Source of the DNA: Candidatus Omnitrophota bacterium
GTDB lineage: Bacteria > Omnitrophota > Gorgyraeia > Zapsychrales > JANLHA01
Length of the DNA: 64,000 nt
NCBI GenBank assembly: GCA_022711395.1
Contig: JAKLFA010000003.1
Span: 98,509-162,508, forward strand
Direction of reading: 5' to 3'
The position numbers and the translations under genes were made by a program. Under the pieces are notes generated by a model. That model did not search any database and was not told the DNA's origin. It saw nothing but the letters and a program-made list of their open reading frames with translations. Positions 8,716 to 51,954 of this stretch are shown in pieces. How positions within the stretch are numbered: position 1 is the stretch's first letter; each line of letters starts with the position of its first letter.

Positions 8716-9429
8716 TCACGCGATCACGGAACCGGAAAGCAGTTCCCTCACGCCGTTTTTGTCCTGCACGTAGATCTCCGGCAGGAATTCGATCGACTTG
8801 GGGATCTGCTTTTCGATGACCGCTTTCAGGCGCTGCTGCTGCTGTTCATCCTGACCGTTGAACAGCGGTTCCTGACTGAGGTCGTTCAAGATCAGGATGC
8901 CCGGGTCATGCGCGAACTCAAAATTCTTGATCAGGGCCTTCACCAGAAGGTCCAGAAAGCAGGGTTTGTCCTTAAAAACATCCACCGCGCTCTTGACCGT
9001 GATCTTCCCCCAGTCGACGGCGTTCAAATTCTGCAGGATCCCGTAAACAGAGGAATATTTCACCAGCCGTTTCCCGCCGGGAGGGCACTTTCTGGCGTGG
9101 TTGACCAGGACGCCCGCGATCTCCTGATGGTTGAAGGTCTTGACCTCTTTGTGGATCTCCATCGTCAGAAGCTCGAAGGTGTAGACGCCCCGCACGGCCG
9201 CGGCCGCCTGCGCGACGCTGCGTTTGATCAGGTCCAGAAACGCGTCCCAGATCACCTCTTCGTCCTTACGGATCACGTCCAGCGCCAGGATCTGGCAGGG
9301 CTGGTCTTCATGCACGGCGCGGAATTTTTTGACCTTGTTCTCAAAGCTGCCCTGATAACTGATCTCATCGAACAGAGGCATATGAAGGAACATCCTGGAA
9401 TGCTGGATCCCGCCATCGATAAGGTTCAT
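8716..9429 (-). CDS. Hypothetical protein (237 aa)
   Basis: ORF track. No recognisable motif. Confidence 0.45.
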   Translation of the reverse strand: MNLIDGGIQHSRMFLHMPLFDEISYQGSFENKVKKFRAVHEDQPCQILALDVIRKDEEVIWDAFLDLIKRSVAQAAAAVRGVYTFELLTMEIHKEVKTFNHQEIAGVLVNHARKCPPGGKRLVKYSSVYGILQNLNAVDWGKITVKSAVDVFKDKPCFLDLLVKALIKNFEFAHDPGILILNDLSQEPLFNGQDEQQQQRLKAVIEKQIPKSIEFLPEIYVQDKNGVRELLSGSVIA

Positions 9430-9726: not shown

Positions 9727-10080
9727 TTATTGGACGAGGATCGCTGACTGCGGAGCCACATCGAACGTCCTTTTTAGCGGTTCCTCTGCCGAGGGCGGAT
9801 CAGCGACCGCGCGAGGCTGTTTTCTCACAGGGGCCAGCGGATCGGATTCAAAACCTTCAGCCCGCATCGCCTGAGCCGTATCCACCGCCGGAATGGGCCC
9901 TGTTCTTTTAACTATCCCGTCGGCATGGACCGTCCTCTTGGGCCCGCTCGGGCCCTTGACCTGGCTGGAAATATGATAGTTCAAGAAACCGAACGCCGCC
10001 ATCACCGCGACCGTGACCGAACATGCCAGAACCACCAGACGACCGTTCTTGTTTTCCATCATCAGTCTCCCGCCTTCCAT
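9727..10080 (-). CDS. Small membrane-anchored protein at the distal end of the minor pilin cluster
   Basis: Single N-terminal TM helix (RLVVLACSVTVAVMAAFGFL). It overlaps the PilX-like gene end by 19 nt. Confidence 0.45.
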   Translation of the reverse strand: MEGGRLMMENKNGRLVVLACSVTVAVMAAFGFLNYHISSQVKGPSGPKRTVHADGIVKRTGPIPAVDTAQAMRAEGFESDPLAPVRKQPRAVADPPSAEEPLKRTFDVAPQSAILVQ

Positions 10081-11756
10081 ACCATTTTGTCCGTGATGTC
10101 GTTCGAAAAAGCGACGAACGTGTTCAACGTCGGAAAATAGGGCGGCGCTTCCCCAAACCGCATGCGTTCATCATAAACAAAGTTCCGCCCGTATCCGGAT
10201 GTCGGCTGTCCCGTGGTCCCGTTAAATTGGCCGAAAGCCCCATAGCTGTCCGTGATCGCTCCGCCCAAAAGGGTCGCCGTTCCGCGGGGGGCCCCGCTGT
10301 CATAATTGTCGACCTGAAAGACCCCGTTGGTCGCCAGGACCGTCCCGTGGACCTGGACATTGTTCGGGGCCGAGGTGCCGATCCGCACATCCCCCTGCCA
10401 GGAAATGACCCCCAGCAGGTTCTCGGTCCCCATCGCCGACGGCGCGGAATAATCCGTGTCCCCCGGGGTTCCGACCGCCGGAGTATGATCCTGATATGTC
10501 ACATTATTGGTGATCACAATATCATCGGCGCTGGCGACCGTGACCTTCGAGTTCGCCTGGACCTGGCCGCGAAAGCTCGTGATCTGCCCGTCTACATAGA
10601 CCAGCGTCCCCACGTCATCGACCCCGTCCGGAAGCCCTTCATAAACGCTCGACTGTCCCGTGGCGCTGTCAAAGACGGTCGTCTGGTTGCTGTTCTTGTC
10701 AACCGTGACCCGTTTAAACGCGCCCCCCTGGGTCACCGTGTAGACCGGACGGCTGCTGCCGTCAACGGACATTTCGACCGCCCCATTACCCTTGACGTAA
10801 ATCCCCCCGGTCAATTTTCCACCCTGGCTGGGAACATAGATCCCCTGATTATTGTATTTTTTCTTTCCGGTCGCCTGATCGACCATATTCGCCTGTTTGG
10901 TGGATGAATTCAGGCTGACCGCCGGCACATTCCGGTCGAAATCATCCTGTAAGATGGGGACGTCTTTCGTCCCATTGTGGTCGCTGTTAAGCAAGACCGG
11001 CGATCCATCATTGTAAAAACGCGCGGTTGTTTCCTTTTGGGAGATCGCCTGCTCGAAGGTGCCGCTGGGGTTGAGGGCGAAATTGAAGCGTCCGTTGGTG
11101 TGGACCGGGCCGGCAAAATTGGTCTTATCCGTGAACCACACATGCGTCCCCGAAGGCATGGTCTGCTCATTGGTAAAAAGGGCGTATTTGGCGAAATTGT
11201 CGCGCTGGACCCGGACCGTGAAATCCCCCCGCAGGGTGATCGAGGAGGAGAACGCTCCGGACGTGCCGCTGGCCGTGATCGTGTAGGTGTAGGGAAAATC
11301 CCAGCTGTCCACGCCCACGGAATACGGGTCTTGCTTTTCGGTCATCAGGATCTCGTATTGATACGGTTTGTTGCCGAAGGACCCCCCTCCGTAATACATG
11401 GCCTGCTCACCGTCCTGGGTCAGGACCCCCACATTATTTTCACGGACAGAATAGACCAGCCACCCCAGCCCGTCTTTGGAGGAGACCTTGCTCATGGAAA
11501 AGCTCAAAACCCCGCTGGGGGCGGCCATGGAGATCGTGTCCATCAAAAAATCATTGATCAGCGTGTCGACCTGTTTGAGGGCGACCTGCGCGGCGCCGTT
11601 GGCCGTATAAAAAGCCCTGGTCATTTCCCGGTCCAAAGTGGCCATGTTATTTTCATGCACCGCGGCCAGCAGAAAAAGCCCGGTCAGGCCGAAAACAAAG
11701 AGCAAAAAGAACAAGGCCATGATGATCGCCATTCCCCGTTCGCTGGAAAGTCTCAT
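10062..11756 (-). CDS. Type IV pilus assembly PilX-like protein (PilX_N domain, 564 aa)
   Basis: N-terminus MRLSSERGMAIIMALFFLLFVFGLTGLFLLAA matches the PilX N-terminal motif (RG followed by a hydrophobic helix). An AGGAGG RBS lies upstream. The large Thr/Gly/Asn-rich extracellular domain is adhesin-like. Position is immediately after the PilW-like gene. Confidence 0.7.
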   Translation of the reverse strand: MRLSSERGMAIIMALFFLLFVFGLTGLFLLAAVHENNMATLDREMTRAFYTANGAAQVALKQVDTLINDFLMDTISMAAPSGVLSFSMSKVSSKDGLGWLVYSVRENNVGVLTQDGEQAMYYGGGSFGNKPYQYEILMTEKQDPYSVGVDSWDFPYTYTITASGTSGAFSSSITLRGDFTVRVQRDNFAKYALFTNEQTMPSGTHVWFTDKTNFAGPVHTNGRFNFALNPSGTFEQAISQKETTARFYNDGSPVLLNSDHNGTKDVPILQDDFDRNVPAVSLNSSTKQANMVDQATGKKKYNNQGIYVPSQGGKLTGGIYVKGNGAVEMSVDGSSRPVYTVTQGGAFKRVTVDKNSNQTTVFDSATGQSSVYEGLPDGVDDVGTLVYVDGQITSFRGQVQANSKVTVASADDIVITNNVTYQDHTPAVGTPGDTDYSAPSAMGTENLLGVISWQGDVRIGTSAPNNVQVHGTVLATNGVFQVDNYDSGAPRGTATLLGGAITDSYGAFGQFNGTTGQPTSGYGRNFVYDERMRFGEAPPYFPTLNTFVAFSNDITDKMVWKAGD

Positions 11757-35257: not shown

Positions 35258-35447
35258 GACACTACGACACTAAAAACCTTAAAACAAGACACTGGGACAC
35301 TACGACACTGTGACACTAAAAACCTTAAAACCCTAGTCACTAAGTACCAATGTCTTAGTGTCTTAGTGCCTTAGTGCCTTAGTGTCTTAGTGCCTTAGTG
35401 CCTTAGTGCCTTAGTGCCTTAGTGCCTTAGTGCCTTAGTGCCTTATT
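35258..35447. repeat. Octamer-repeat palindromic element, copy A
   Basis: Left arm of phased GACACT(A/G)N octamers, then AAAACCTTAAAACC, then a central hairpin CACTAAG-TACCAATGT-CTTAGTG, then a right arm of about 11 CTTAGTG(C/T) octamers. About 70 bp are identical to copy C. Confidence 0.9.
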
Positions 35448-35786: not shown

Positions 35787-36230
35787 TTACCCTTTCCGCT
35801 TTAACTCCTCCAGACTTTTCAGTCGAAACCCCAGCTCCCAATACCGGCACTCCACGCGGCTGTTCTCGGTGATCTTAATTTCCGTCTCCGGCGACAGGCT
35901 GATCAGCCCGTGCCAGGTCCCTTTATAGAGAATGACCGGTTTGTCGAGCCGGAAACATTCGATCCGTTTGAAATCTTTTTCCGTCGACACAAAGATCAGC
36001 GCCTCACCCGCAACCGGCTCAAAGGTCTCATCAGAAGCCGGATGACTTTCCATGCGGCCGATGGTCTTGTCGCGCAGGACCAGATACGCCACGCGCCAGC
36101 CGTTTTTTTCAGCCACCGTATGAACGATCCGCCAAAGATTGCGCTTCGTTCCCTTCAGCTCTTTCGACGGGTATTCAATGATCTTGCCGTATTGTTTAAA
36201 ATTTTTTCTGCCCGGTGACTGGATCAGCAT
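35787..36230 (-). CDS. Ureidoglycolate lyase-like cupin protein
   Basis: FKQYGKIIEYPSK parallels the AllA N-terminal F-x-x-Y-G-x-x-I-E motif. The TWHGLISLS region parallels AllA's conserved W-H-H segment. Confidence 0.5.
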   Translation of the reverse strand: MLIQSPGRKNFKQYGKIIEYPSKELKGTKRNLWRIVHTVAEKNGWRVAYLVLRDKTIGRMESHPASDETFEPVAGEALIFVSTEKDFKRIECFRLDKPVILYKGTWHGLISLSPETEIKITENSRVECRYWELGFRLKSLEELKRKG

Positions 36231-38034: not shown

Positions 38035-39471
38035 CTAGCTTTCTCCCTCCCGCATCTCATGATAAACATCGTCGGCGTTGACCTTCCACAGGTCATAGGG
38101 AGCGCCCGGGAGCCGCAGATAATTGCGCGCCGCCAGGATCCCCGTCATGATCGAATGGTCCTGATTGTTGTATTTGTGCATTCCGCCGCGGCCGATCGCT
38201 GAGAAGTTGGAAAATTCATCGATCCTGGACTTCAGCACGTCATAATGGCCTTCAAACCCGACATAGCTGGCCGGATACGCCTGCGCCTCCCGCACGACCC
38301 AGGACCGTTTGACCGACCGGCCCTGCACAAAGCCCAGCAGCTTTAACTCGTCGACCGCGAGCCTTTCCAGCGCCTCATCCGTCTCGTTCCAAAGGCCCTC
38401 GTTCTGGAAGACAAAATATTCCACGCCCAGCGCGCTCGTGCCGGGATGATCGACCATCGCTTTAGAAAAATTGCCGTAATTGACCAGCCGCGCCATGCGC
38501 ACGTCCGGAGAATGAATGTAGATCCACTGGTCCGGGAACAGGCCCTCCCCTTCCAGAAGCAGGTTCACCGTGATGTGATCACGGTATCGCAGCGCCTTCA
38601 CCGCTTCCTGCACGCGGGTCGGCTCTTGGGGGTCCAGCATGCTGAAAAAACCCTTCAGCGGAATGCTGCTGAAAAAATGCCGCGCGGTAATGTTCATGCG
38701 CTCTGAACCGTCGAGGCAGACATCGACGGACTTGATCGTTGCGCCCTCCCGGCGGATCCCGGTAACGGCCGCCTTCAGCAGAACCTCTGCGCCCCCGGAT
38801 TCGATCCTGCGGCGCAGCGCTTCATACATCTGACCCGACCCCAGGACCGGATAATGGAATTCTTCCACCAGGCTTCTGACATGGTTGTCTTTCTTTTTCA
38901 GGATGGCCTTTTTTAAGATCTGCAGCACGCTGAGATCTTTGATCCGCTGCTCGGCCCACTGCGCGCTGATCTGGTCACACGGCCGGCCCCAGACCTTCTC
39001 GGTATAGGTCTTGAAAAACGCGCTGTAAAGAGCGCGCCCGAACTTCTGGACCACCCAATCCTCGAAGGTGTCCGGCTTTTTTGGGGGGGCCAATTTCGAC
39101 GCGACGAAGGAAGCGATCACCTTCAGCGATTCAACCGGGCCGAGTTTCAGCAGGACGTCCACAGGTTTGATGGGGTAATGAAAAAATTTTTTGTTATACA
39201 AAATGCGCGTAAGACGTGAAACCGGAATGAAATCAGGCCCCAGGGTCTCTTTCCACAACGCCTCGATCTCGGGATTGCGGGTAAAAAAACGATGCGGCCC
39301 GATATCGAACCGCGCGCCTTCATGGACTTCGGTCCGGGCAAGGCCTCCGACGATGTGATTGCGGTCGACGATGATCGTGTCCTTCACGCCGTGTTTGGCC
39401 AGCTCCGCGGCCGCTCCCAGCCCCGCCGGTCCCGCGCCCAGGATACAACATTCGCAAGACTTAAAGATCAT
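38035..39471 (-). CDS. FAD-dependent oxidoreductase (UDP-galactopyranose mutase-like)
   Basis: ILGAGPAGLGAAAELAKHG dinucleotide-binding motif; length 478 aa. Confidence 0.8.
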   Translation of the reverse strand: MIFKSCECCILGAGPAGLGAAAELAKHGVKDTIIVDRNHIVGGLARTEVHEGARFDIGPHRFFTRNPEIEALWKETLGPDFIPVSRLTRILYNKKFFHYPIKPVDVLLKLGPVESLKVIASFVASKLAPPKKPDTFEDWVVQKFGRALYSAFFKTYTEKVWGRPCDQISAQWAEQRIKDLSVLQILKKAILKKKDNHVRSLVEEFHYPVLGSGQMYEALRRRIESGGAEVLLKAAVTGIRREGATIKSVDVCLDGSERMNITARHFFSSIPLKGFFSMLDPQEPTRVQEAVKALRYRDHITVNLLLEGEGLFPDQWIYIHSPDVRMARLVNYGNFSKAMVDHPGTSALGVEYFVFQNEGLWNETDEALERLAVDELKLLGFVQGRSVKRSWVVREAQAYPASYVGFEGHYDVLKSRIDEFSNFSAIGRGGMHKYNNQDHSIMTGILAARNYLRLPGAPYDLWKVNADDVYHEMREGES

Positions 39472-40430: not shown

Positions 40431-40445
40431 ATTTCCATTGTGTTT

Positions 40446-40622
40446 TAATAAGACACTACGACACTATGACACTGAGACACTAAAAACCTTTAAACAAGAC
40501 ACTGTGACACTACGACACTCAGACACTAAAACCCTTAAAACCAGGAAACCAAAAATCTTTTTTCTTTTCACTTTTCACGTTTTCACGTTCATAGTGCCTT
40601 AGTGTCACAGTGTCTTATTTTA
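40446..40622. repeat. Octamer-repeat palindromic element, copy B
   Basis: Terminal inverted repeats AATAAGACACT/AGTGTCTTATT. Two blocks of GACACTNN octamers, each followed by AAAACCTTTAAAC-like spacers, plus an internal TTTTCAC(G) x3 tandem. Confidence 0.85.
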
Positions 40623-40643
40623 ATTAGGCCGCTGCCCCCGATT

Positions 40644-41441
40644 TTATATAATATCAAGAATCCGTTGAATTTGAGGAACGCCGTACTCTGCCCTTCCAGT
40701 AACAACTTTTAAATTCGGCAGCACTTCACACTGACCAAAACTATGAGTATGGCCGCACAATACCGTCATCTCAATCATAGGATGTTTTTCCATAAAATTC
40801 TTCAAGACATTTCCGACAACTTTACAAGAAAAAAACGGCAACCAATCATCTCCTGAAATTTGACCTTCATGCCAAGTCGCTTCTTTAAATGGCGGGACAT
40901 GAGTCAAAACAATGATCCTGTTATGCTTCTTTACTGCAAGAGGAAGAACCCGTCTAAAATGTTCTGCCGCTTCATTAGCCAATTCCTGAATAGCACTTAA
41001 ACGCAGGGTCCGATCCCTCGTCTTCAATTCATCGATCAAATAAAAATCATTCAGTTCTACAGAACTACGGTAAAAATCTCCAAACCGTCCATCAGCCCAG
41101 GAATCATGCCCGATCAAAACCGTGTGAGTCGATAAGCTTACAGAGTCGACTGCATTTAACCAAATTAAATTCTCAGAATTTTTTACCAGATCAGCAACCA
41201 TTGATCGGGTTCCCTTGATCGATCCCTCATAATAATCATGGTTACCAAGAACAAAATAGATCGGTCGCTTTAAAACAGATTCCGCATGCTTAAGATAATC
41301 AATGATCTTATCGGCTTCGCCAATATCTCCCGAAACAAAAAAACAATCAACCGTTTCCTCAGATACCAGCAACAGGAACTCTTCCAGTTGATCGTGTTTT
41401 AAAAAATTCAAATGAATATCTGTTAACCAAGCCGCATTCAT
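40644..41441 (-). CDS. Metallophosphoesterase (calcineurin-like)
   Basis: DIHLN, GDIGE, GNHDYY and GHTH motifs. AT-rich codon usage marks it as part of the foreign island. Confidence 0.8.
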   Translation of the reverse strand: MNAAWLTDIHLNFLKHDQLEEFLLLVSEETVDCFFVSGDIGEADKIIDYLKHAESVLKRPIYFVLGNHDYYEGSIKGTRSMVADLVKNSENLIWLNAVDSVSLSTHTVLIGHDSWADGRFGDFYRSSVELNDFYLIDELKTRDRTLRLSAIQELANEAAEHFRRVLPLAVKKHNRIIVLTHVPPFKEATWHEGQISGDDWLPFFSCKVVGNVLKNFMEKHPMIEMTVLCGHTHSFGQCEVLPNLKVVTGRAEYGVPQIQRILDII

Positions 41442-41493
41442 TTTTATTAAAATCCCGCCCTCATGTACGTAAAAAGCTCTCCAGCCGTCTCTT

Positions 41494-42285
41494 CTATGTT
41501 AATTGTGCGATCAATTCTTGAAACCGTTCAAAAATATCCGTCCTTAAATCATCAATAAATACATCCGGTCCATTTTCTTTTTCAACCATCAAACAACCGG
41601 GGCTTGAATTACGCTTAAAATATTTTTTCAAATTCTTTGCCGCTTGCGGCAACTCACCCCTTTTATAATATTGATGAAACTCTTTCAAAATAACATCAAG
41701 GTCGGGAGCATAGCGCAATATAAAGTAGATATAAAAAAGATCTTTCGCTTGTTTTAATTCGTCCTCACGCTCAACAAACACCGCTGATTTATGATAAATA
41801 AAAGCTGAGGGTCTAGGACATAATAAAGAATGGGTTTTATCTCTTCGTGCATCTTTGACGCTGACTGGCGCTGAATGACTCAATAAGAAATCGAAGTCGG
41901 GAAGTTTGTTAAGGCTCATTTGAACCCCAACGAGTTTTTCGACATTCTCTACCGGAATATCCGTCGAACTGATAAAGTCAATGCGAACTTTCCCGCTCTT
42001 AAATAAAACAACCGGATACATCCGATTCATATCTAGATGGCGTTCAGTATAATCAAAGTCCGACAAAATCTGAAAGATGGTTTTCTTATGAACTCGCGGC
42101 TTCTTTGGGCTCACACCAAAATCAATATCCAATGTTGTAACCGGGTTAACAGTAAAATTTTTCCAGATAAAGCGGGGATAAACATACGCCAACCATCCCC
42201 CAACAAGCGTAAGCTCACCGAGATATTCATTCAAATCATCAAGCACACAAAAAAATAAATCTTCTGACTCCATATTATTGGCCAA
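41494..42285 (-). CDS. Nucleotidyltransferase-fold protein, AbiEii-like toxin candidate
   Basis: LTLVGGWLAYVY...R...TLDIDF is an NTase-fold G-G...D-x-D pattern. It overlaps the upstream partner gene by 11 nt. Confidence 0.45.
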   Translation of the reverse strand: MANNMESEDLFFCVLDDLNEYLGELTLVGGWLAYVYPRFIWKNFTVNPVTTLDIDFGVSPKKPRVHKKTIFQILSDFDYTERHLDMNRMYPVVLFKSGKVRIDFISSTDIPVENVEKLVGVQMSLNKLPDFDFLLSHSAPVSVKDARRDKTHSLLCPRPSAFIYHKSAVFVEREDELKQAKDLFYIYFILRYAPDLDVILKEFHQYYKRGELPQAAKNLKKYFKRNSSPGCLMVEKENGPDVFIDDLRTDIFERFQELIAQLT

Positions 42286-42958
42286 GGGTTTTTCCTTCCT
42301 GTTCCAGCTTTTCTTTTAAGAACTCCGACTGCTCTCTCCCCCTGGGCTGAAAATGATATAAATCTAAAAATAACTGCAAATTGGAAACAACAGAATATCC
42401 TTCGATCTTTTGACTGTTTGCAAAAGTGCTTGTTTTATAATACGGCTCAATAAAATGCACATTTCCCCCGGAAACAAGCTCTTTCAAATCAAGTTTCTGC
42501 CGGACATTAAGAATATCCTTATCCCAGTTATCCGTTCTCAAATAAATGTATACTTGATCTGTTTTCACATAAGACGTTAATAAATTAGCACCTGAATGAA
42601 GCGTCAGCGCATAGGTATGATTATTAAGAACGGCTTTCATTTTTTTCAATATATCTTGGTCGTGAGTGTAATACGTCTTGACTGTATTAAGCTCAAACTT
42701 ATAAAATTGCGTCCATTCTTTGATAAGCTTGTCAGGGTAAGTCAACACTGTATGACTCTCTGGTCCTTTTTTGATACGCTCCGCATATCCCTTTTGAGCG
42801 ATGATCTCTAAAACCTGCTGTGTTAATCCGAGACTAACCCCTTCAGGCCCGTTGAAATCTCGCACGACCCATTTGCGATCAGGCTCTTGAAGCATCTTCC
42901 TAAGAATTAATGTCGCCTTATCAGCAAATATGTTCTTTTTATATGTCTTTTTGTTCAT
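42275..42958 (-). CDS. wHTH regulator, AbiEi-like antitoxin candidate
   Basis: Likely start MNKKTYKK at 42958, with a wHTH-like N-terminus (ATLILRKMLQEPDRKWVVRDF...GVSLGLTQQVLEII). Nested operator palindromes lie immediately upstream. Confidence 0.4.
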   Translation of the reverse strand: MNKKTYKKNIFADKATLILRKMLQEPDRKWVVRDFNGPEGVSLGLTQQVLEIIAQKGYAERIKKGPESHTVLTYPDKLIKEWTQFYKFELNTVKTYYTHDQDILKKMKAVLNNHTYALTLHSGANLLTSYVKTDQVYIYLRTDNWDKDILNVRQKLDLKELVSGGNVHFIEPYYKTSTFANSQKIEGYSVVSNLQLFLDLYHFQPRGREQSEFLKEKLEQEGKTLGQ

Positions 42959-43018
42959 AATGTTCACCAATCTATCAATGTTCACTCTTTAGTGAACAAT
43001 ATATAATATATGAACATT
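42959..43018. promoter_or_regulatory. Operator-like nested inverted repeats
   Basis: Half-sites TGTTCAC at 42961 and 42979, and GTGAACA/TGAACAT at 42992 and 43011. TGTTCAC-TCTTTA-GTGAACA is a perfect 7-bp IR. TATAAT-like sequences fall between the sites. Confidence 0.55.
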
Positions 43019-43022
43019 AATG

Positions 43023-43184
43023 TCAAGCGCTCTGGACATACTCACCGTTCTGCTCTTCCTGCACGATGCGCCGGCCCGTTTCCCAGGCAAACCTGACCTG
43101 CGCCTCCCGCGCGTTGGTGTACAGAGCGGAAATATCCTCGACGAGTTTTTGGAACCTGTTTTTAGCTGGAAGGTTGGTGGGCAT
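43023..43184 (-). pseudogene. Truncated N-terminal remnant of a DUF1016 (YhcG-like PDDEXK nuclease) gene
   Basis: A GC-rich 162-bp segment inside the AT-rich island. It encodes MPTNLPAKNRFQKLVEDISALYTNAREAQVRFAWETGRRIVQEEQNGEYVQSA, matching the conserved DUF1016 N-terminus (..NxxLvxLYWxIGrxI..eq.G). It stops abruptly at the AT-rich operator sequence. Confidence 0.5.
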
Positions 43185-43201
43185 GGGCGGTCACCTGTTA
43201 T

Positions 43202-44404
43202 TTACGAATATGTTTCCTTTGTAAAACGCCAATCATATCCATAAGCTTTTTTACGATACCCATATCCTGTTGTACATGGTTTGCGCAAACAAACAGAACT
43301 AATTGATGAAACACAGTTCGTATTTTTAACTTTGCCTTTTTCTACTAGCCACTTTGCCGCCTCATGCTGGCTTGAAAATACTTTCAAAATATTCCCCGAC
43401 TGCAAATCAATCATACAAACTTCTTTACTTGTTTTCGCTGCAGCAGCTTTAGCTCTTTTTTGTGCATTTGCTTGCGCTTCTTGAGAATGTTTATTCTTCC
43501 ATTCTTTTAATGATGCTTTACGCTTTTCATTAGCTTTTTGGCTTGTACGCGAACTTATTAGCTTTTCCTGCCAAGCCTTATATTTTTCTGGGTTTTCTTT
43601 AGCCCACTTTTTAAAGCCAGCTTTTCGTTTTGCTTGGCATTCAAGAGTTTTAATTTTTTCGTGACTTTTCTTTTTTGCTTCAGCATATTCCTTGGGGTTT
43701 TCCTCTCTCCACCTTACAATACGCTTACTAAACATTTCACGATATTTTTCTGAGCTCATGACTTCTTTTATTCTTCGACTACGCGCGCGAAGTTCTGGTG
43801 TATCACCCGATCGAAAAGCTTTTTTGGATGCTTCAAGCATCGGTTTAAACTGCTCAGGATGATTTTTTATATACTCACGTTTCTTTTCGCTTGTTTCTGC
43901 GATGGATGGATGCTTAGTTGTTCCACCGCCGCCAGCAACAAGATTAAGGCATTTTTCATCAGACAAAAGGTCTTTATCGACAATAGTCGCTTCAAGTTGT
44001 TCTGCTTCCTCAGCGGTCTCACATTTTGCGATATAATAACGCGCAAATCGATCTTTATATTTTTTAAACTTATTTACAAATTTTAGTCCAGATCCTTGAT
44101 ATCGTTTTAATTGAGACCATGTGGGCCGATTAGCTTTACCAATATAATATTCGCCGCTTTCCCAGTTTATTTGAATATAAATTACTCTATAATAACCATC
44201 ACTTTCATTTCGTTTACGAACAAGTTCACTTGGGGTTAAAACATCAAACCAACGGTTTTTTATTGCAATACGCTGTTTATTGAAACCCCATTTTGCTGAA
44301 TTACGTTTTGAATCAAAAAAAGCGGACAGATTGTCATCCAAAGACAATTCAGCCGGATTAAATTCCTGCCAAACTCTGATATTTTCATTAATTGTTATTA
44401 TCAT
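43202..44404 (-). CDS. GIY-YIG homing-endonuclease-like protein with a C-terminal IENR1/NUMOD-like DNA-binding repeat
   Basis: N-terminal YYRVIYIQINWESGEYYIGKA (GIY...YIG). Lys/Glu-rich linker. C-terminal KVFSSQHEAAKWLVEKG...TTGYGYRKKAYGYDWRF matches the intron-encoded nuclease repeat pattern (F-x-S-x-x-EAA...G-Y-x-W-x-F). Confidence 0.6.
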   Translation of the reverse strand: MIITINENIRVWQEFNPAELSLDDNLSAFFDSKRNSAKWGFNKQRIAIKNRWFDVLTPSELVRKRNESDGYYRVIYIQINWESGEYYIGKANRPTWSQLKRYQGSGLKFVNKFKKYKDRFARYYIAKCETAEEAEQLEATIVDKDLLSDEKCLNLVAGGGGTTKHPSIAETSEKKREYIKNHPEQFKPMLEASKKAFRSGDTPELRARSRRIKEVMSSEKYREMFSKRIVRWREENPKEYAEAKKKSHEKIKTLECQAKRKAGFKKWAKENPEKYKAWQEKLISSRTSQKANEKRKASLKEWKNKHSQEAQANAQKRAKAAAAKTSKEVCMIDLQSGNILKVFSSQHEAAKWLVEKGKVKNTNCVSSISSVCLRKPCTTGYGYRKKAYGYDWRFTKETYS

Positions 44405-44574
44405 GCTTTAATTGAAATAAAAGTGACGCGCACATTTATTGACTCATTTAAAAAAGGTGTACGTCACGCGTCCCGTTTATTATTTATTCATTTTATCTCG
44501 TGGCTCCGGATTCTTCTGCATAAGCCCATTGAATTCGTCTGCAGTCTTACAGACCAATTTTTTTACCCTTCATT

Positions 44575-46239
44575 TTATTGCTTACACCAAGCGGCGATGG
44601 TATTAATATTCTTCTTTATTGCCGCAGAGATTTGATCATCGCCAAGCCCATCAATTTTAATTAAGACACTGCTTGCCTTATGATCAGCATTCCGAAAAAT
44701 TCCAAGTTCTTCTTCAAATGATTTATCGAATACCGCTAAAGCATCCTCCATAATCCAAGAACACGGTCTTTTGTTATCAGACTCGTCTTTCTTTCTACCA
44801 TCTAGGTCAAAAACGGTAAAATATGGTATTCCAAAGGCTTTGCATAATAGCTGGTAATATGGGATCTTCGACTTCCCATTTGCACTGATAATGGTCACGT
44901 CACAAAGACTTTTATTAATCTTATTAGCCAAAACCGGCATTCCATATTTCTCAGCGGGTCCTTCAACAATTAAACATTTACGGGCAAAGAATATTTGATT
45001 ATCCTCACGAAAGAATACTGTTTTATGCTGATGAAATTTTTTAATCTCATCGAGGTGCTCCGACACTTCCTTGTTTTCTATAACCTCATTCAGCTTTTCT
45101 GCCTCCGGCGTATTCTTAAAATCTCTGTTGAACCGACTTATTGAATCCCAATTGGCGATACTTATAAAACAATCCGATTGCGTTGTGTAAACTATTTGAG
45201 ATGATGATTTTTGAAATTCCTTGAACAATCTCGACTGCAATTGAGGATGCAAATGAAGTTCCGGCTCATCTATAAGAAATACTATTTCCCCTCTCGAAAG
45301 ACTACTAATAATCTCTAATAAAAAATAAGCCAATAAAATGGAGATACCGGAACCGAGGTTTTTCTGGTCAATTTGATTCGACCCATCGCGTAATGAGAAA
45401 AAAGATTTTAAAAACGGCTGTTCGATATCCAATAAACTCAGCTCTAGATTTTCGCACTCAATACCAACAAAATCTTTTAGCTTCTCTCCTAGCGGCCGCA
45501 TAATGCGGTCATTTTTTGGATCAATCACAGTGGCGATAACCTGGCTGTAAAAATCTTCCCACTTCTGCACGATATCCACCTGAACCCATTTATTCCTGTA
45601 TCGCCAGTTTAAATCCTTTATTATTTTACTCAAAAGCGTATTAAAACCGGTACTTGCTTCACTTTCTCTGTCACGATCAAAATAAAATATGTTTGGATAA
45701 TTTATGAATTCATTCTGCAGTGATAACCTTTGCTGTGTGAACTTAAAGACAGAGTTAGCTGTTTTACGCGGAGATTCATATCCTTGATCAGTCTTAAGCA
45801 CTTTATCTGGGATTTTGGTTGATAGCGCATCTAAATAAATGCACTGAAGCTCCTCTTTAGAGTTATACAAAATTGGTACAGCATATTTCTCTGTCACGAA
45901 CGGATCAGACAATGCTTTTCCTCCCGCGGCCTGTTTTCTTCTATGCGCTGAAAACACGACGCTTCGACACAAAATATCCTGAGTGGTATACCCATCGGGT
46001 ATCTTACACAAAAAGGGCTTATCGAAATATACTGTTATCCCCAAATCTCCTTCGTCGCTATTATTGAAATCTTGCTCAGTGATATATGCATATCCTGATG
46101 AAGTTGCTAAATTAATAGCTTCTAAAATCGTGGTTTTGCCACAACCGTTTTCTCCAATTAAGGCATGACATTTTTGAAAATCGACATCAACTTTCTTAAA
46201 ACATCGAAAATTATTTATTTCTATTCTAGATATTGCCAT
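44575..46239 (-). CDS. OLD-family ATP-dependent endonuclease (ABC ATPase plus Toprim), apparently stand-alone (class 1-like)
   Basis: Walker A GENGCGKTT. ABC signature and Walker B region (VFLIDEPELHLHP). C-terminal Toprim (LIVEGPAEKYG ... FTVFDLDGRKK). Confidence 0.8.
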   Translation of the reverse strand: MAISRIEINNFRCFKKVDVDFQKCHALIGENGCGKTTILEAINLATSSGYAYITEQDFNNSDEGDLGITVYFDKPFLCKIPDGYTTQDILCRSVVFSAHRRKQAAGGKALSDPFVTEKYAVPILYNSKEELQCIYLDALSTKIPDKVLKTDQGYESPRKTANSVFKFTQQRLSLQNEFINYPNIFYFDRDRESEASTGFNTLLSKIIKDLNWRYRNKWVQVDIVQKWEDFYSQVIATVIDPKNDRIMRPLGEKLKDFVGIECENLELSLLDIEQPFLKSFFSLRDGSNQIDQKNLGSGISILLAYFLLEIISSLSRGEIVFLIDEPELHLHPQLQSRLFKEFQKSSSQIVYTTQSDCFISIANWDSISRFNRDFKNTPEAEKLNEVIENKEVSEHLDEIKKFHQHKTVFFREDNQIFFARKCLIVEGPAEKYGMPVLANKINKSLCDVTIISANGKSKIPYYQLLCKAFGIPYFTVFDLDGRKKDESDNKRPCSWIMEDALAVFDKSFEEELGIFRNADHKASSVLIKIDGLGDDQISAAIKKNINTIAAWCKQ

Positions 46240-46301
46240 TACGCCCTCTTATTATTGAACTTATAAAAATAAAGGCAACGGACACATTTGCTACGTTCCC
46301 T

Positions 46302-46652
46302 TTATGGCCGCTTTTCCATCCTGCCTTTGACCAGCTTGGCCGGATACTTCCTGGCGTTCTTCTTTATCTTCCTGAGGACCGCCTTTTCCAGGTCGATCCC
46401 GTATAGGCCGCAAAACCCCATCAAATAAATGGCCACATCCGCGACCTCATCCTCGATCTCAAATTTTTTGCGTTTGTCTTTCAAGATCTGAGCCGCCTCT
46501 TCAGCCGAATTCGTCCACTGGAAATGCTCCATGAGCTCCGCCGCTTCGATAGACAGGGACATGCTCAAATTTTTTGGGGTATGGAATTTTTCCCAATCCC
46601 GTTCTTTAACGAATTTTTTTATTTTATCCTGGATCAAAGATATTTCATTCAT
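46302..46652 (-). CDS. MazG-like nucleotide pyrophosphohydrolase
   Basis: EAAELMEHFQW and EIEDEVADVAIYLM match the MazG EExxE/D motifs. Start taken at the Met with a GGGGGAA RBS (the track ORF extends to 46712). Confidence 0.8.
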   Translation of the reverse strand: MNEISLIQDKIKKFVKERDWEKFHTPKNLSMSLSIEAAELMEHFQWTNSAEEAAQILKDKRKKFEIEDEVADVAIYLMGFCGLYGIDLEKAVLRKIKKNARKYPAKLVKGRMEKRP

Positions 46653-46776
46653 GCAATTCCCCCGATCAGAAAATAATAAAGGCCAGGGAGCTCCTGGCCA
46701 CAATACAGTCATTACGTTTTTTATATCTCAACTTTAAAAAAGCGTCCGTCATGTTTTTTGTTTTTTCCTATTTTTT

Positions 46777-47916
46777 TTAGGAATCATATTCACTCTTAAA
46801 ACTCCCTAGAGAATGCGTATTAATTTTATAAACAGACTCTTCTATTTTATAAATAATAACATTATCAGAATTAAATTCCTGCAGATGGCTTAATGTTGCA
46901 ACCTGACCCGGAACCAATTGAAGTTTTTTTCTTAAAATCCAATTCCCCAATTCTTTATTGGGATCGCTCATTAAAGCTTTACATCCCTGCTGACAAACCT
47001 TTGCTGTCATTTCCCTCCCATCATCTGTAATAAGCTTAAACTTCTGGTCTTTCGGCGGGAAAAAGCCGGGCTTCACCTGATGGATAATCTGTGGAATCGG
47101 AATATAAACTTCATCCGGATGACGAGACCGTCCGCCCGCATTCCATTGGTTAAGGCCGGATTTCAATGAGACTTTTCCTGTTCTTGTACTGTAAAGAGGC
47201 AGAATCACATAATCTGTTTTCTTGATAAGACTGCGATCTACAGTATCCGGCTCACTAAGTTCATCAAGGGCTGCATTTAAAAGCGCCTTGTTTAAAAACC
47301 CGTTAATTTCTACAGCATCAAAATATTGCGCATAACTAAAATCCATAAGAAGAACACTCTTGGATATATTGAATGTATATTTAAAATACTTATCTTCAAA
47401 AGCCACTGACCCCCGTTTTTTTTCGATCCCTCTAATTGAAGGAAGATCAATAGGGATCATAGGACACTCTGCGATATATATTTTCCCTACATCCCGAACA
47501 ACATAATGATAAACGGTGTTTTTAAGGCCGTACGCCTTTACCGTTTCTTCTATCCGCTGATTCCTATATAAAGCAACCTGCTTTATTAAATGATCATCAT
47601 TTGTTAAATCTAATGGGAACTTCGCGCGGTTGTTAAACTCAGCCACTTTTTCTGTCCCGCGCATTGCTGGTTTTGCCAAAAAAGTTTTTACGCCTATCCC
47701 ATCTGTGATCTTAACAGCATCAACCGAAACATCTTTTCGGGTTTCGTCAGAGGCTTCAAAGGCTTTGCAGAAAATTTTTTCAACAACCCGATAAGGCAGA
47801 TACGGTTTTGTATTTCCGCTGAATATTGGACTAAGCTGAGCTGTGCCTAATATAAGCTGTTTGTATTTTTTTCTCTGAGGGGATGATTGTTTAGGATAAA
47901 AGGGGTCAAAAAACAT
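46777..47916 (-). CDS. Putative type II restriction endonuclease (partner of the adjacent C5-methyltransferase)
   Basis: 379 aa with no methyltransferase motifs. Position is immediately downstream of the dcm-like and vsr genes in the same orientation. AT-rich. Confidence 0.5.
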   Translation of the reverse strand: MFFDPFYPKQSSPQRKKYKQLILGTAQLSPIFSGNTKPYLPYRVVEKIFCKAFEASDETRKDVSVDAVKITDGIGVKTFLAKPAMRGTEKVAEFNNRAKFPLDLTNDDHLIKQVALYRNQRIEETVKAYGLKNTVYHYVVRDVGKIYIAECPMIPIDLPSIRGIEKKRGSVAFEDKYFKYTFNISKSVLLMDFSYAQYFDAVEINGFLNKALLNAALDELSEPDTVDRSLIKKTDYVILPLYSTRTGKVSLKSGLNQWNAGGRSRHPDEVYIPIPQIIHQVKPGFFPPKDQKFKLITDDGREMTAKVCQQGCKALMSDPNKELGNWILRKKLQLVPGQVATLSHLQEFNSDNVIIYKIEESVYKINTHSLGSFKSEYDS

Positions 47917-47950
47917 TATCCAGCTGTTCTTTCCATTAGAGCGTTCTGCT

Positions 47951-49012
47951 TCATCCTGCAGCCGGCTCTAATACATTTTGAACTCGATAGGATCCGGCAG
48001 CATTCTGATATTTCATATCTAAAGCAATCCTAATCTTTTCCGCGATACGGCGTATTACAGGAACACTCACAGAATTTCCCATCTGCTTATAAAGATGCGC
48101 TGAGGCTATATCGGGAAGACGAAAATCATCGTCAAACCCCTGCAGGCGGGCACATTCACGCGGAGTCAGCTTGCGAATGCCGTAATTATCACGGACAAGC
48201 GGAACATTATGGCCTCCGGTTCCCATATTTGCTGTCAAAGTCGGGCATACTCCGCTTTTATTCTCCCGAAGATAAACCCTCCGCCACTGATAAACAGTAT
48301 TCTTAGATTTCATCTGTTCATTCAGAACTTTATAAAAACCGCATTTCTCAGTATAGTAATATTTTCTGTCAACTTTCTTTTGTTCTAAAATGTCTCGACG
48401 GACCGTTTTTGTTAATTCACTCTTTTGAGGAAAAGAAAAATTATCAGAACAACTCCCGTCTCCTCTTACCCATGCAGATTCGTCTTGAAAACCGACAATA
48501 TAAATTCTTTCTCTGGTCTGCGGAATATTGCCGTACTCCATTGTATTAAGAACTTTCGGAATAAAAGAATAGCCCGTATCTTTAATTGTTTCTTCCATCA
48601 CGCGGAATGTTCTGCCGTTGTCATGGGCAATAAGATTTTTGACATTTTCTAAAAGAAATGCTTTCGGCTTAAGACTTGTAATTATTTTCATCGTTTCAAA
48701 AAACAAATTACCCCTGGAGTCTTCAAATCCCTTTCTGTAACCGGCAATAGAGAATGCCTGACATGGAAAACCGGAGGTAATAACATCCGTCTTATCAAGA
48801 AAGCTCATCTTCTGATTAACCAAATCATGAACATCGTCTGGAAAGAATTTATGGGAAAAATTGGATTCGTAAGTGATCTTTGCATTCTTATCAAATTCAT
48901 TTGCCCATAAAAGCTGAAAACCTGCCTGTTCAAAGCCTCGGCAGATCCCGCCTATTCCTGCAAATAAACTTCCGACCGTATACTTTGCTTTTTTTACCAT
49001 GTTATGATTCAT
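47951..49012 (-). CDS. dcm: DNA (cytosine-5)-methyltransferase
   Basis: Motif I FAGIGG, motif IV PCQAFS, motif VI ENV. Confidence 0.9.
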   Translation of the reverse strand: MNHNMVKKAKYTVGSLFAGIGGICRGFEQAGFQLLWANEFDKNAKITYESNFSHKFFPDDVHDLVNQKMSFLDKTDVITSGFPCQAFSIAGYRKGFEDSRGNLFFETMKIITSLKPKAFLLENVKNLIAHDNGRTFRVMEETIKDTGYSFIPKVLNTMEYGNIPQTRERIYIVGFQDESAWVRGDGSCSDNFSFPQKSELTKTVRRDILEQKKVDRKYYYTEKCGFYKVLNEQMKSKNTVYQWRRVYLRENKSGVCPTLTANMGTGGHNVPLVRDNYGIRKLTPRECARLQGFDDDFRLPDIASAHLYKQMGNSVSVPVIRRIAEKIRIALDMKYQNAAGSYRVQNVLEPAAG

Positions 49013-49070
49013 TTCAATCCTCCATTTTAAGGGGGAAATTTAAGGAATGAGGATTGAAGCATGTTACCAC

Positions 49071-49505
49071 TCATATGTGTGGAATGTCAATACTTTTCTT
49101 TTCTTCAAACAACGGCTTTAATTTAGAAAAAACTTTTAATTCCTTTTTTACTTCACACTCCCAAACTGTAATAATACGCCAACCATCTTTTTTTAACGCT
49201 CGTTTATTTATTTTATCGCGTTCTAAATTTCTTTCAAGTTTCGGAACCCAATATTTTTTATTTGTTTTTGGTACATTTGCCCGGCGGCATCCTTTATGGC
49301 AATGCCAAAAACATCCGTGAACAAAAACTACAGTTTTATATTTAGGAAGAACTATATCCGGCTTCCCGGGAAGACTTTTTACATGAAGCCCGAATCTAAA
49401 TCCCACCCTATGAAGAATACTTCTAACTATCTTTTCGGGCTTCGTATCCGCGGCCCGTATGCGGGACATATTCCAGCTTCTTTTTTCTCCGCTCAAATGG
49501 TCCAT
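49071..49505 (-). CDS. vsr: Very short patch repair endonuclease
   Basis: SWNMSRIRAADTKPE N-terminus. FVHGCFWHCH zinc motif. Length 144 aa. Confidence 0.9.
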   Translation of the reverse strand: MDHLSGEKRSWNMSRIRAADTKPEKIVRSILHRVGFRFGLHVKSLPGKPDIVLPKYKTVVFVHGCFWHCHKGCRRANVPKTNKKYWVPKLERNLERDKINKRALKKDGWRIITVWECEVKKELKVFSKLKPLFEEKKSIDIPHI

Positions 49506-49620
49506 ATGTCAGTTCATCACTAATATTTTCTGTATGATTATACCATTAACAAACTGCTGTAAAATCGTTTATTCTTTATTTCGAGATGTCTGCCATATTA
49601 AATTCATCAGATTTTTCCTG

Positions 49621-51207
49621 TCACCAATCAATCGGAAAGTAGTCTTTGAGGAATTTGCCGCACCAGTGTTTGCCCGTGAGGATGCCGCTAAAGAACGGAT
49701 CGCACACCCGCGCCGCGCCGTCCACAATGTCCAAGGGCGGCTGAAAATCATGCTGCTCCTGCTTAAACGCTGCCAGGGCGGCCGGATCTTCGTCCGTCAC
49801 CCAGCCGGTATCGACCGCGTTCATGTAGATGCCGTGCCCGGCCAACTCTGCCGCGGCCGTGTGCGTCAGCATGTTGAGCGCGGCCTTGGCCATGTTGGTG
49901 TGGGGATGGCGTTCGCTTTTTTTAAAACGCAAAAACTTCCCCTCCATGGCCGACACATTGACGATGTGTTTCTGCCCCGTCACGTCGCGCTTCATCATCG
50001 GGATGAGCCGGTTGCACAAGACAAACGGCGCGATCGCGTTCACCAGCTGAAGCTCGAGCATCTCAGCGGTCGGAACTTCGCCGAGCTTTAGCCGCCAGCT
50101 GTTGGTCGCACGCAAATCCACCTGCTGAAGATCCGCGTCGAGCTTTCCGCTGGGGAAAACTTCCTGAGTGTTCAGCGCATGATCATACGCGTAGGGGATC
50201 TGCGAGAGTGCGGCGGATGCGCGCAACCCTATCCCCGGCGTTCGGCCCGTCCAGCTGACCGGCAGGCCTTTCTCTGAGCTGAGGGCGTCTTTTGAAAAAG
50301 ACGCGAGCCTTTGCTTGCATTCTTCAAAATCATCCATCAACGAAAGCGCCTCGATCGGAATTTCAAAATGCGCCTTCGCTTCATTGGCCATCAGGTGTTT
50401 ATAAAACCCCGGCGGGCGCCTCACGGTCTGGGCCGCGTTGTTGATCAAAATATCCAGGCGGTCATATTTTTGTTCCACAAAAGAACAGAAGATCTCCACG
50501 CTCGGTGTATGCCGCAAGTCCAGCCCGTAGATGTGCAAACGGCTTTTCCAGTTTTCAAAATCCTCTTCTTTGGAATACCTGAGCGCCGAATCCACCGGAA
50601 AGCGTGTGGTGGCGATGACCCTCGCTCCGGCGCGCAGCATCATGAGCGTCGCCTGATATCCGATCTTTAAACGCGAGCCAGTGATGAGCGCGACCCGCCC
50701 CTCAAGAGAGGCGGTCTGAAAGCGTTTTTGATAATTCAACTCTGCGCACGACGGGCACATGGAGTCATAAAAAAAGTGGAGTTTGGTGTACTCGGCCTTG
50801 CAGACATAACAGTTGCGGGCGGATTTCAGCTCTGGTGGTGGCGCCTTCGGGGGCTGCGGCTCCTCCGGCGTTTGCGGGTCGTGGGCCTGCGCCTCTTCAA
50901 ACGCAATTTGTTTGGGCGCGCTGAACACTTTGGCCTCGCGCGCTTTGCGGATGCCTGTGTTGGCGCGGGCCATGCGTTCGTGCGTGCGGGTGCGCTGGCG
51001 TTTGGCTTTGCGGATCTCGCGTTTGCGCGCGACGATCTCATCGCCGTTGGGCTGCGCGAGCCTCCCTGCGGCTTTCAAAAGCTGGATGCGTTCTTTTTCA
51101 GATAATTGAGCGAGCTTGGAGCTGTCTTCAACTAAACCTTCAAGGATCGAAATGCATTCCGCGATTCGTTCAGGTGATGGAGTGATCGGATTTTTTGGGG
51201 TGGTCAT
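49621..51207 (-). CDS. SDR-family oxidoreductase with an N-terminal charged/zinc-ribbon extension
   Basis: [25 protein letters not shown] Rossmann motif and NNAAQ. N-terminal CYVCK...CPSC. Confidence 0.75.
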
Positions 51208-51239: not shown

Positions 51240-51370
51240 GACACTAGGACACTACGGCACTACGACACTAAAAACCTTAAAACCCTAGTCACTAAGTACC
51301 AATGTCTTAGTGTCTTAGTGCCTTAGTGCCTTAGTGCCTTAGTGCCTTAGTGTCTTAGTGCCTTAGTGTA
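51240..51370. repeat. Octamer-repeat palindromic element, copy C
   Basis: AGACACTAGGACACTACGGCACTACGACACTAAAAACCTTAAAACC, then a hairpin with loop TACCAATGT, then 8 CTTAGTG(C/T) octamers. It overlaps the last codons of the STAS-like gene. Confidence 0.9.
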
Positions 51371-51716: not shown

Positions 51717-51786
51717 AGAGCATGCCCCCTGTTGTTGGAATAGAAAATATTATAAAACATGAAGCGCGGAAGGTAAAGCATTTAAC

Positions 51787-51954
51787 TAAGACACTGAGAC
51801 ACTACGACACTGAAAACCTTCAAACAGGACACCCTGACAATACGGCACTAGGGCACTAAAATCTTAAAAACATTAAAACCAAACAGTCAAAAAAAAGGCA
51901 CCAAGAGCTTCCAATGTCTTGGTGCCTTAGTGCCTTAGTGTCACAGTGCCTTAA
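51787..51954. repeat. Octamer-repeat palindromic element, copy D (more diverged)
   Basis: TAAGACACTGAGACACTACGACACTGAAAACCTTCAAAC ..., a central perfect hairpin GGCACCAAG-AGCTTCCAATGT-CTTGGTGCC, then CTTAGTGC octamers. Confidence 0.85.

Follow-up and report, generated by a model that had tools for sequence, protein, structure and literature searches.

Here we describe an endonuclease gene and the short open reading frame (ORF) that follows it in the genome of a Candidatus Omnitrophota bacterium (GCA_022711395.1), both lying on the minus strand of a 64,000-nt stretch of contig JAKLFA010000003.1 (98,509-162,508), hereafter the window. The 400 amino acids (aa) encoded by the gene are predicted to form a modular, intact GIY-YIG endonuclease like I-TevI and the Seg enzymes; the short frame, of 53 codons, appears to be the 5′ remnant of a gene of the DUF1016/YhcG family. 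The best overall explanation, which we hold to be probable, is that of a cargo nuclease of I-TevI/Seg type that is mobile as a bare ORF and lies here, within a low-GC island of defence genes, beside the remains of a DUF1016 gene. It is an uncharacterised member of the modular GIY-YIG endonucleases, with a somewhat unusual lifestyle, and no description of its family was found in the literature. The gene and its parts are the following.

43202-44404, minus strand: intact 400-aa GIY-YIG homing-endonuclease-like gene (ORF list, domain matches, homologues and composition)
44195-44404, minus strand: N-terminal domain, residues 1-70, beta-rich and conserved in the family (alignment and AlphaFold2, AF2, model)
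43925-44191, minus strand: GIY-YIG catalytic domain, residues 72-160, ending in a GGGG hinge (Pfam, alignment and tblastn)
43430-43903, minus strand: Lys/Glu-rich helical repeat array, residues 168-325 (AF2, alignment and the relative P0241)
43220-43423, minus strand: IENR1/NUMOD1-type module, residues 328-395 (the relatives P0203 and P0128, and alignment)

The GIY-YIG superfamily is recognized by GIY and YIG motifs placed 10-11 residues apart and followed by an arginine, a catalytic glutamate and an asparagine. This signature is present in the 400-aa protein, with VIY at residues 74-76 and YYIG at 86-89, then R93 and R101, the catalytic E138, and N154. The motifs from which the gene had been noticed, YRVIYIQINWESGEYYIGKA and EAAKWL...GYGYRKKAYGYDWRF, were both confirmed in the frame. 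The catalytic set (Y76, Y86/Y87/G89, R93, R101, E138 and N154) shows no variation among the 24 family members that were aligned, and the enzyme therefore looks active. The Pfam GIY-YIG profile (PF01541) matches residues 74-144 with 20.7 bits (E 5e-4; gathering score 22.6), while the PADLOC model ‘HEase’ and a PHROG endonuclease family match with E values of 8.4e-6 and 2.2e-5, respectively. Furthermore, a Foldseek comparison of the protein with viral models returned 56 matches at E<=1e-3, headed by phage homing, Seg and intron endonucleases, and tblastn against phage records gave, over the GIY-YIG domain, 31.7% identity to F-LimXI and 34.7% to SegD. The same comparison of the whole model with the PDB gave no match at E<=0.001, and a sequence search of the PDB with the family profile found nothing relevant.

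The remainder of the protein could be assigned mostly through its relatives. One of them, P0241, a protein of 316 aa with a Pfam GIY-YIG domain and five NUMOD3 motifs (E 2.5e-27), is collinear with residues 72-394 of the 400-aa protein (E 9e-18). The Lys/Glu-rich region stands at the position of these five motifs and is therefore most likely a DNA-tracking array and not a spacer: it is conserved as much as the rest of the protein in the family alignment, it comprises nine predicted helices, and a W-x3-NPE-x-Y motif recurs in it at residues 232, 267 and 302, that is, with a period of 35 aa. A divergent NUMOD3-like repeat array is thus the most likely identity of this region. Downstream of it lies the C-terminal module, of which the GIY-YIG protein P0203 contains four copies in tandem. 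P0203 has a Pfam NUMOD1 match, and the family member P0128 has a weak one at the position of the module, whose predicted IENR1 identity is confirmed by this transitive homology. The module also carries four invariant cysteines (C330, C364, C372 and C377), which may point to a metal site. Altogether, the preliminary description of this DNA, made from its letters, was right in giving the protein the GIY-YIG plus IENR1-type layout of I-TevI and Seg enzymes, which P0241, P0203 and the Foldseek matches bear out, and in regarding the gene as free-standing. It had also pointed to an unusual Lys/Glu-rich linker; the region exists, but as a conserved array at the NUMOD3 position rather than as a spacer.

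The first 70 residues have no match in any library searched and no counterpart in P0241 or F-LimXI, both of which align only from residue 72. They nevertheless form a domain with invariant residues (N8, W12, F15, P17, R45, I46, W52 and F53), for which AF2 predicts strands at 2-4, 9-13, 44-48 and 51-54 and a helix at 58-67. The AF2 model of the entire protein is mediocre (pLDDT, the predicted local distance difference test, 66.7; pTM, the predicted template-modelling score, 0.34), with a clear secondary structure that divides into a beta-rich segment (1-67), the GIY-YIG core (73-141), a disordered GGGG hinge, the nine helices (168-325) and a beta-beta-alpha C-terminal module. The order of parts would then be a family-specific N-terminal domain, GIY-YIG, a glycine hinge, a helical array of 35-aa period and one IENR1/NUMOD1-type module.

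This architecture recalls that of I-TevI and of the Seg enzymes (SegA-G of T4-like phages and F-LimXI-like proteins), with which it shares a GIY-YIG domain having all catalytic residues, a flexible hinge, a free-standing gene and a C-terminal modular DNA-binding region composed of repeats at the NUMOD3 position and an IENR1/NUMOD1-type module. In I-TevI, the C-terminal modules bind a long asymmetric DNA site and the tethered catalytic domain cuts at a distance. By analogy, the C-terminal modules of the 400-aa enzyme would anchor it on a long asymmetric DNA site, and its tethered GIY-YIG domain would then cut at a distance. The differences are, however, considerable. The family of the window adds the conserved 70-aa N-terminal domain, its repeats are too diverged for the Pfam NUMOD3 profile, and it has four invariant C-terminal cysteines in place of the linker zinc finger of I-TevI. 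Moreover, its members are found in the chromosomes of bacteria from many phyla rather than in phages, and it lacks a conserved insertion site. As to F-LimXI itself, the ‘putative homing endonuclease’ of Dickeya phage LIMEstone1 (HE600015.1, 144332-145927), it is a fusion protein that joins an N-terminal GIY-YIG-like region to a C-terminal 5-hydroxymethyldeoxyuridine (5-hmdU) DNA kinase domain (Pfam HMUD2, E 3.5e-160). A further comparison is offered by PD-T4-3, a single-gene GIY-YIG defence nuclease, which is likewise a stand-alone GIY-YIG nuclease in a defence island; its structure (9u75) is one of the weak Foldseek matches in the PDB, at a non-significant E of 1.7, and among PADLOC models only ‘HEase’ matches.

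The protein has 571 homologues, the best 120 of which are about 400 aa long and 73-87% identical to it, with hosts that include Omnitrophota, Syntrophorhabdaceae, Chlorobium and several Legionella species; identity within the family amounts to 70-87% across many phyla. An exhaustive search of cluster representatives gave 799 matches at E<=1e-3 and only 30 at E<=1e-30, so the full-length architecture is a narrow family within the wider GIY-YIG endonucleases. Genome contigs yielded 29 further loci from about ten phyla (among others Elusimicrobiota, Micavibrio, Bdellovibrionales, Methylotenera, Rhodocyclaceae, Bacillota, Falkowbacteria and Verrucomicrobiota). The GC content of the gene is 34-43% in close family members (36.3% in the window copy) and at most 48% in copies of 50% identity, whereas that of the host flanks reaches 62%. 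At several loci (L002, L012, L014, L022 and L029) the low-GC patch is the ORF alone, and the flanks of different loci are unrelated to within about 20 nt of the ATG and directly after the stop codon. The insertion contexts are mutually unrelated in about 30 loci, and the one conserved insertion site expected of I-TevI/Seg enzymes is accordingly absent from them. The family therefore spreads between phyla as a nearly bare ORF, with a low GC content whatever the host.

Across the family the median ratio of nonsynonymous to synonymous divergence (dN/dS) is 0.135, and the window copy differs from those in unrelated genomic contexts by a dS of only 0.29-0.49; together these values indicate that transfer was recent and that purifying selection has acted. 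A full-length copy is missing from the 50,697 phage records, in which only residues 72-229 have matches, to SegD- and F-LimXI-type proteins, and 72,556 plasmid records contain no copy of the family at all. Nor is there a constant neighbour: scans of 140 neighbouring ORFs returned integrases, insertion sequence (IS) elements and ordinary housekeeping genes, with defence genes here and there. Several copies adjoin known defence genes, such as QatABCD-like genes (KAP NTPase, QatB and TatD) at L040 and a large N6-methylase/Eco57I/Type_ISP_C restriction-modification protein at L003. Decayed internal fragments that retain only the last 45-60 residues, away from contig ends, were observed in a Bdellovibrionaceae contig (L036, 349-534) and in one of Oscillospiraceae (L037, 6001-6131). 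In addition, parts of the gene stand at contig ends within single assemblies, in Methylotenera (L016 and L035) and in Chromatiales (L027 and L038); this suggests that the assemblies broke in or at the gene, which is expected when a sequence recurs in more than one context or strain.

A vehicle can be recognized for some of these copies. At L003, L016 and L039 an imperfect palindrome of 46-65 nt begins no more than about 10 nt past the stop codon; it is closed by AAC...GTT and has the bulged-stem shape of integron attC sites; at L039 the stem is kept and the loop is different. Comparable sites also follow the next two ORFs at L003, which is to say that the gene belongs to a cassette array there. 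The three hairpins of that marine TARA contig lie at 9210-9268, 9985-10055 and 10775-10835, after consecutive small ORFs, and adjoin an IS110 element. L016 is a solo copy, situated between the genes for citrate synthase and a thioesterase, with tyrS and anmK also nearby. A first detector of attC sites, which demanded six complementary R-box bases out of seven, found nothing because the R boxes here pair over only 4-5 bases. A detector of single hairpins recovered two of 28 loci against one of 315 control windows; it missed L016 because the ORF there had been called through the site, and this locus was confirmed by sequence match. A GTTAGAG about 17 nt before the ATG, at the position where a cassette boundary (G|TT) would fall, is moreover common to L003, L016 and L022.

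The resemblance to integron cassettes, which consist of a promoterless ORF and its attC and may also occur solo, therefore concerns the ORF-sized unit and the hairpins of the three loci. On the other hand, the window and most loci have no recognisable attC, and no integron integrase adjoins L016 or any other copy or is present in the island of the window; the stretch of L003 examined has none either, its integrase being of the phage type with an Arm-DNA-binding domain. Since attC sites are limited to about three of the 28 loci and the window has none, integron-type transfer is not demonstrable as the general vehicle. It would account for part of the spread. The window copy resembles the cassette copies over a stretch that opens about 6 nt upstream of the ATG and closes about 7 nt past the stop codon, including a shared AATAACA. 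The attC of L039 and that of L003 begin just where this similarity ends, and in the window a GC-rich patch of 170 bp begins there; what comes after the stop codon is the DUF1016 stump, with no hairpin closed by AAC...GTT. The window copy is trimmed to its ORF, both cassette ends having been lost.

The second subject of this work is that patch and the frame within it, which together with the adjoining elements are located as follows.

43023-43184, minus strand: 53-codon remnant of a DUF1016/YhcG gene, PADLOC PDC-S02 (PADLOC, tblastn and plasmid matches)
43027-43196, minus strand: GC-rich patch of 58.8% GC, comprising the ribosome-binding site (RBS) AGGTGA and the stump (composition)
42998-43026, minus strand: promoter-like site of the AbiE-like module, TTGACA-17-TATATT, an 11/12 sigma-70-like match (promoter scan)
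41494-42985, minus strand: AbiE-like pair, formed by an AbiEi_2 regulator (42275-42985) and an NTP_transf_8 nucleotidyltransferase (41494-42285) (Pfam)

Although Pfam and NCBIfam have no match for the 53-aa product, nine PADLOC PDC-S02 profiles do match it, with E values of 5e-4 to 7e-3. PDC-S02 is the DUF1016/YhcG family, as the match of E. coli YhcG to it illustrates (1.7e-134). When three full-length DUF1016 proteins (Pfam DUF1016_N plus YhcG_C) were compared with the window by tblastn, they aligned only with 43041-43184 (E 1e-4 to 1e-2), and the rest of the gene, the YhcG_C nuclease domain included, was not found anywhere in the 64 kb. The stump aligns from its start codon with residues 1-56 of the full-length proteins, with an internal deletion of 8 aa in the conserved core, and covers only the first ~50 residues of the roughly 137 positions of the DUF1016_N profile. 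The plasmid records gave 24 weak matches; where these are annotated, the match is nearly always to the N-terminus of yhcG or of a ‘PDDEXK nuclease domain-containing protein’. By these comparisons the frame is best taken as a true 5′ remnant of a DUF1016/YhcG gene, the similarity being weak but specific. It is akin to the DUF1016/YhcG PD-(D/E)XK nucleases (the PADLOC candidate PDC-S02) through this match from the initiator Met, but with 53 codons, a deletion and no YhcG_C it would be a remnant of that family and not a member. Two other candidates were discarded. A weak DUF1016-like match at 35805-35927, inside an ORF of 147 aa, was dismissed as chance, and the idea that the GC-rich patch could be a cryptic attC was set aside, because its only inverted repeat (43028-43038/43118-43128) has no AAC/GTT boxes and the DUF1016 coding similarity is specific.

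The composition of the patch and its two borders bear on how the gene was lost. The frame has 56.8% GC within an island of 38.5% GC (37.8% in the AbiEi_2 gene), and the GC content at third codon positions (GC3) of the patch is 0.72, versus 0.73 in a host gene and 0.25 in the GIY-YIG gene; this host-like composition suggests that the stump was once part of a resident gene of this genome. At its 3′ end, the TGA of the stump sits within the TTGACA -35 hexamer of the promoter that precedes the AbiEi_2 gene, and this is the truncation junction; inverted repeats around GTTCAC/GTGAAC are found just downstream of that promoter. At the other border, the GIY-YIG gene abuts an undamaged 5′ end, RBS included, and is therefore not the cause of the truncation. 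There being no other DUF1016 piece in 64 kb, a replacement or deletion at the AbiE junction has to be invoked, and not a clean insertion. The view that this is a truncated DUF1016 gene ending at the AbiE-like module thus holds, the search for its family similarity having succeeded through the PDC-S02 profiles and tblastn where Pfam was silent. As for the suggestion that mobile DNA had disrupted the gene, it stands for the truncation at the AbiE block, but neither for a simple insertion nor for the GIY-YIG gene as the agent. We propose that the low-GC AbiE-like block would have replaced the 3′ part of the DUF1016 gene, the remaining 85% being lost at the junction, and that the stump may be what is left of a resident gene that was overwritten while low-GC blocks were added on either side of it. 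It would then be a by-product of the mosaic growth of the island and not the target of the nuclease. In this sense it may serve as a small but clear record of island building, in which incoming blocks overwrite resident genes, and the deposited 53-aa ‘hypothetical protein’ of this genome ought to be regarded as a fragment of a pseudogene.

The island in which these elements lie, and the immediate upstream neighbour of the nuclease gene, are the following.

40440-49600: low-GC defence island of ~9 kb, with all its genes on the minus strand (GC scan and gene content)
44575-46239, minus strand: OLD/GajA-like ATPase-TOPRIM nuclease, neighbour upstream of the GIY-YIG gene (Pfam and PADLOC)

The GC content of the window is ~55%, and 54.6% outside the island. 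The genes of the latter are, in order, Vsr, a C5 methylase, an NgoFVII-like restriction enzyme, a MazG-like gene, the OLD/GajA-like gene, the 400-aa gene, the 53-codon ORF, AbiEi_2, NTP_transf_8 and a metallophosphatase. The island is unchanged in contigs of several other samples, which represent the same population, and a protein identical to the 400-aa product has been deposited from a Candidatus Omnitrophota genome.

Regarding the role of the nuclease, the gene lands in variable regions and defence islands with no fixed partner, and its product would be cargo that stands alone and is maintained by selection; it would most probably act on incoming DNA (exclusion or defence) and not home into a single fixed site. 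The observations listed in favour of this cargo reading are that the gene is packaged in cassettes, frequently has a defence-island context, is under strong purifying selection, is missing from phages and plasmids and has no conserved insertion site, and on this basis it is moderately preferred to classical selfish homing. A more specific version, in which the family would use a homing-endonuclease chassis for exclusion or defence by a single gene, spread as an integron-type cassette or bare ORF and recognize foreign DNA through its repeat array and N-terminal domain, can be advanced only tentatively. Of similarly limited probability is the alternative that the gene is a classical selfish free-standing homing endonuclease that has, or had, its homing site at the DUF1016 gene or immediately upstream. 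That the closest annotated relatives are all phage homing endonucleases, that ORF-sized low-GC insertions occur between housekeeping genes in several genomes, and that the decayed fragments of L036 and L037 are those predicted by a cycle of invasion and decay, all speak for it. Nevertheless, contexts and flanks are unrelated in the about 30 loci compared, the phage and plasmid records hold no full-length copy, and the attC sites of three lineages provide a route of mobility that needs no nuclease. Furthermore, DUF1016, intact or fragmentary, is present at none of the 34 other family loci (flanks up to 6-8 kb) and is absent from the 25 most frequent Pfam families of the 140 neighbouring ORFs. 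The idea, put forward in the preliminary description, that the fragment may mark the homing site is therefore left without support.

Two other explanations concern the neighbours of the nuclease gene, and both appear improbable. The 53-codon ORF could be a genuine small gene, for instance a regulator or inhibitor made of the first two DUF1016_N helices and co-transcribed with the GIY-YIG gene: it is open, its AGGTGA lies 6 nt before the ATG, it begins 17 nt after the GIY-YIG stop codon with no intrinsic terminator found between the two genes, and it is identical in contigs of several samples. However, these identical copies come only from the same population, with an identical island, and the frame is absent from the 34 other GIY-YIG loci; a homologue search with its product returned only itself, with no other candidate by shared words among 5.8 billion proteins. 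The deletion in the conserved core and the stop codon inside the -35 hexamer of a neighbouring promoter are equally at odds with a functional gene, which makes this proposal quite unlikely. Still less credit can be given to the GIY-YIG gene as the second component of a pair, either with the OLD/GajA-like nuclease, in a Gabija-like system where a nuclease would replace the GajB helicase, or with the AbiE-like module. The gene does lie on the same strand as the OLD gene and 170 bp downstream of it, with no consensus promoter or terminator between them on the minus strand, and both encode nucleases in a defence island. But the fixed adjacency to an OLD/GajA partner that characterizes Gabija does not extend to the family: tblastn with the OLD, MazG, restriction enzyme, methylase, AbiEi, nucleotidyltransferase and metallophosphatase proteins found none of them at other family loci, and the scans of neighbours gave no recurrent partner. 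Partnerships with the OLD, AbiE, MazG or restriction-modification genes were rejected for this reason.

Several points count against the overall explanation given at the outset and have to be set beside it. With regard to the protein, its own Pfam GIY-YIG score is slightly under the gathering threshold, the Pfam NUMOD3 and NUMOD1 profiles match its relatives and not the 400-aa protein directly, and the AF2 model is of the mediocre quality given above and has no PDB match. With regard to mobility, the recognisable attC sites are confined to the about three loci of 28, the window copy excluded. The argument that the stump is of host origin is the composition of 170 bp, and an intact syntenic DUF1016 gene was not found. 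The island is flanked by an amino-oxidase gene (38035-39471) and an adh_short gene (49621-51207), and a search of metagenome contigs through the former, a host gene, gave as best relatives short contigs with 57% identity, of which only L050 has one further shared gene and none has DUF1016, island genes or the other flank. Finally, the case for defence or exclusion is one of genomic context together with purifying selection, and the latter would equally be expected of an actively spreading selfish element.

If the cargo reading is right, an enzyme of the homing-endonuclease type would behave as cargo in bacterial chromosomes. Its family keeps 70-87% identity between Legionella and Omnitrophota, is in some cases carried in an integron-type cassette and often stands beside defence systems. 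Should the enzyme target invading DNA, a compact single-gene system would be added to the defence repertoire, and it would constitute an example of the reuse of a selfish-element nuclease architecture.

Some other features of the island deserve mention. The OLD/GajA-like gene matches the PADLOC profiles GajA (6e-37) and Old (4e-36), has no GajB-type helicase adjoining and may be a stand-alone OLD system; the MazG-like gene (46302-46712) comes after it. Beyond this, positions 46777-49500 (minus strand) hold a complete type II restriction-modification module, composed of the NgoFVII-like enzyme with a B3-like DNA-binding domain, the C5 cytosine methylase and the Vsr mismatch endonuclease. On the opposite side, at 40644-42985 (minus strand), AbiEi_2, NTP_transf_8, which is not the usual AbiEii family, and a calcineurin-like metallophosphatase are consecutive, and this row matches no known system in PADLOC.

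Finally, arrays of an 8-bp tandem unit (about GACACTAA/GG) are found in the window at 35259-35441, 40453-40621, 51241-51369 and 51783-51941, each consisting of a plus-strand run followed by a minus-strand run. The sequence ACACTAAGACACT, with up to two mismatches, has 40 matches versus 0.42 expected. The array at 40453-40621 coincides with the low-coordinate GC boundary of the defence island, and the others are located at the edges of lower-GC patches.

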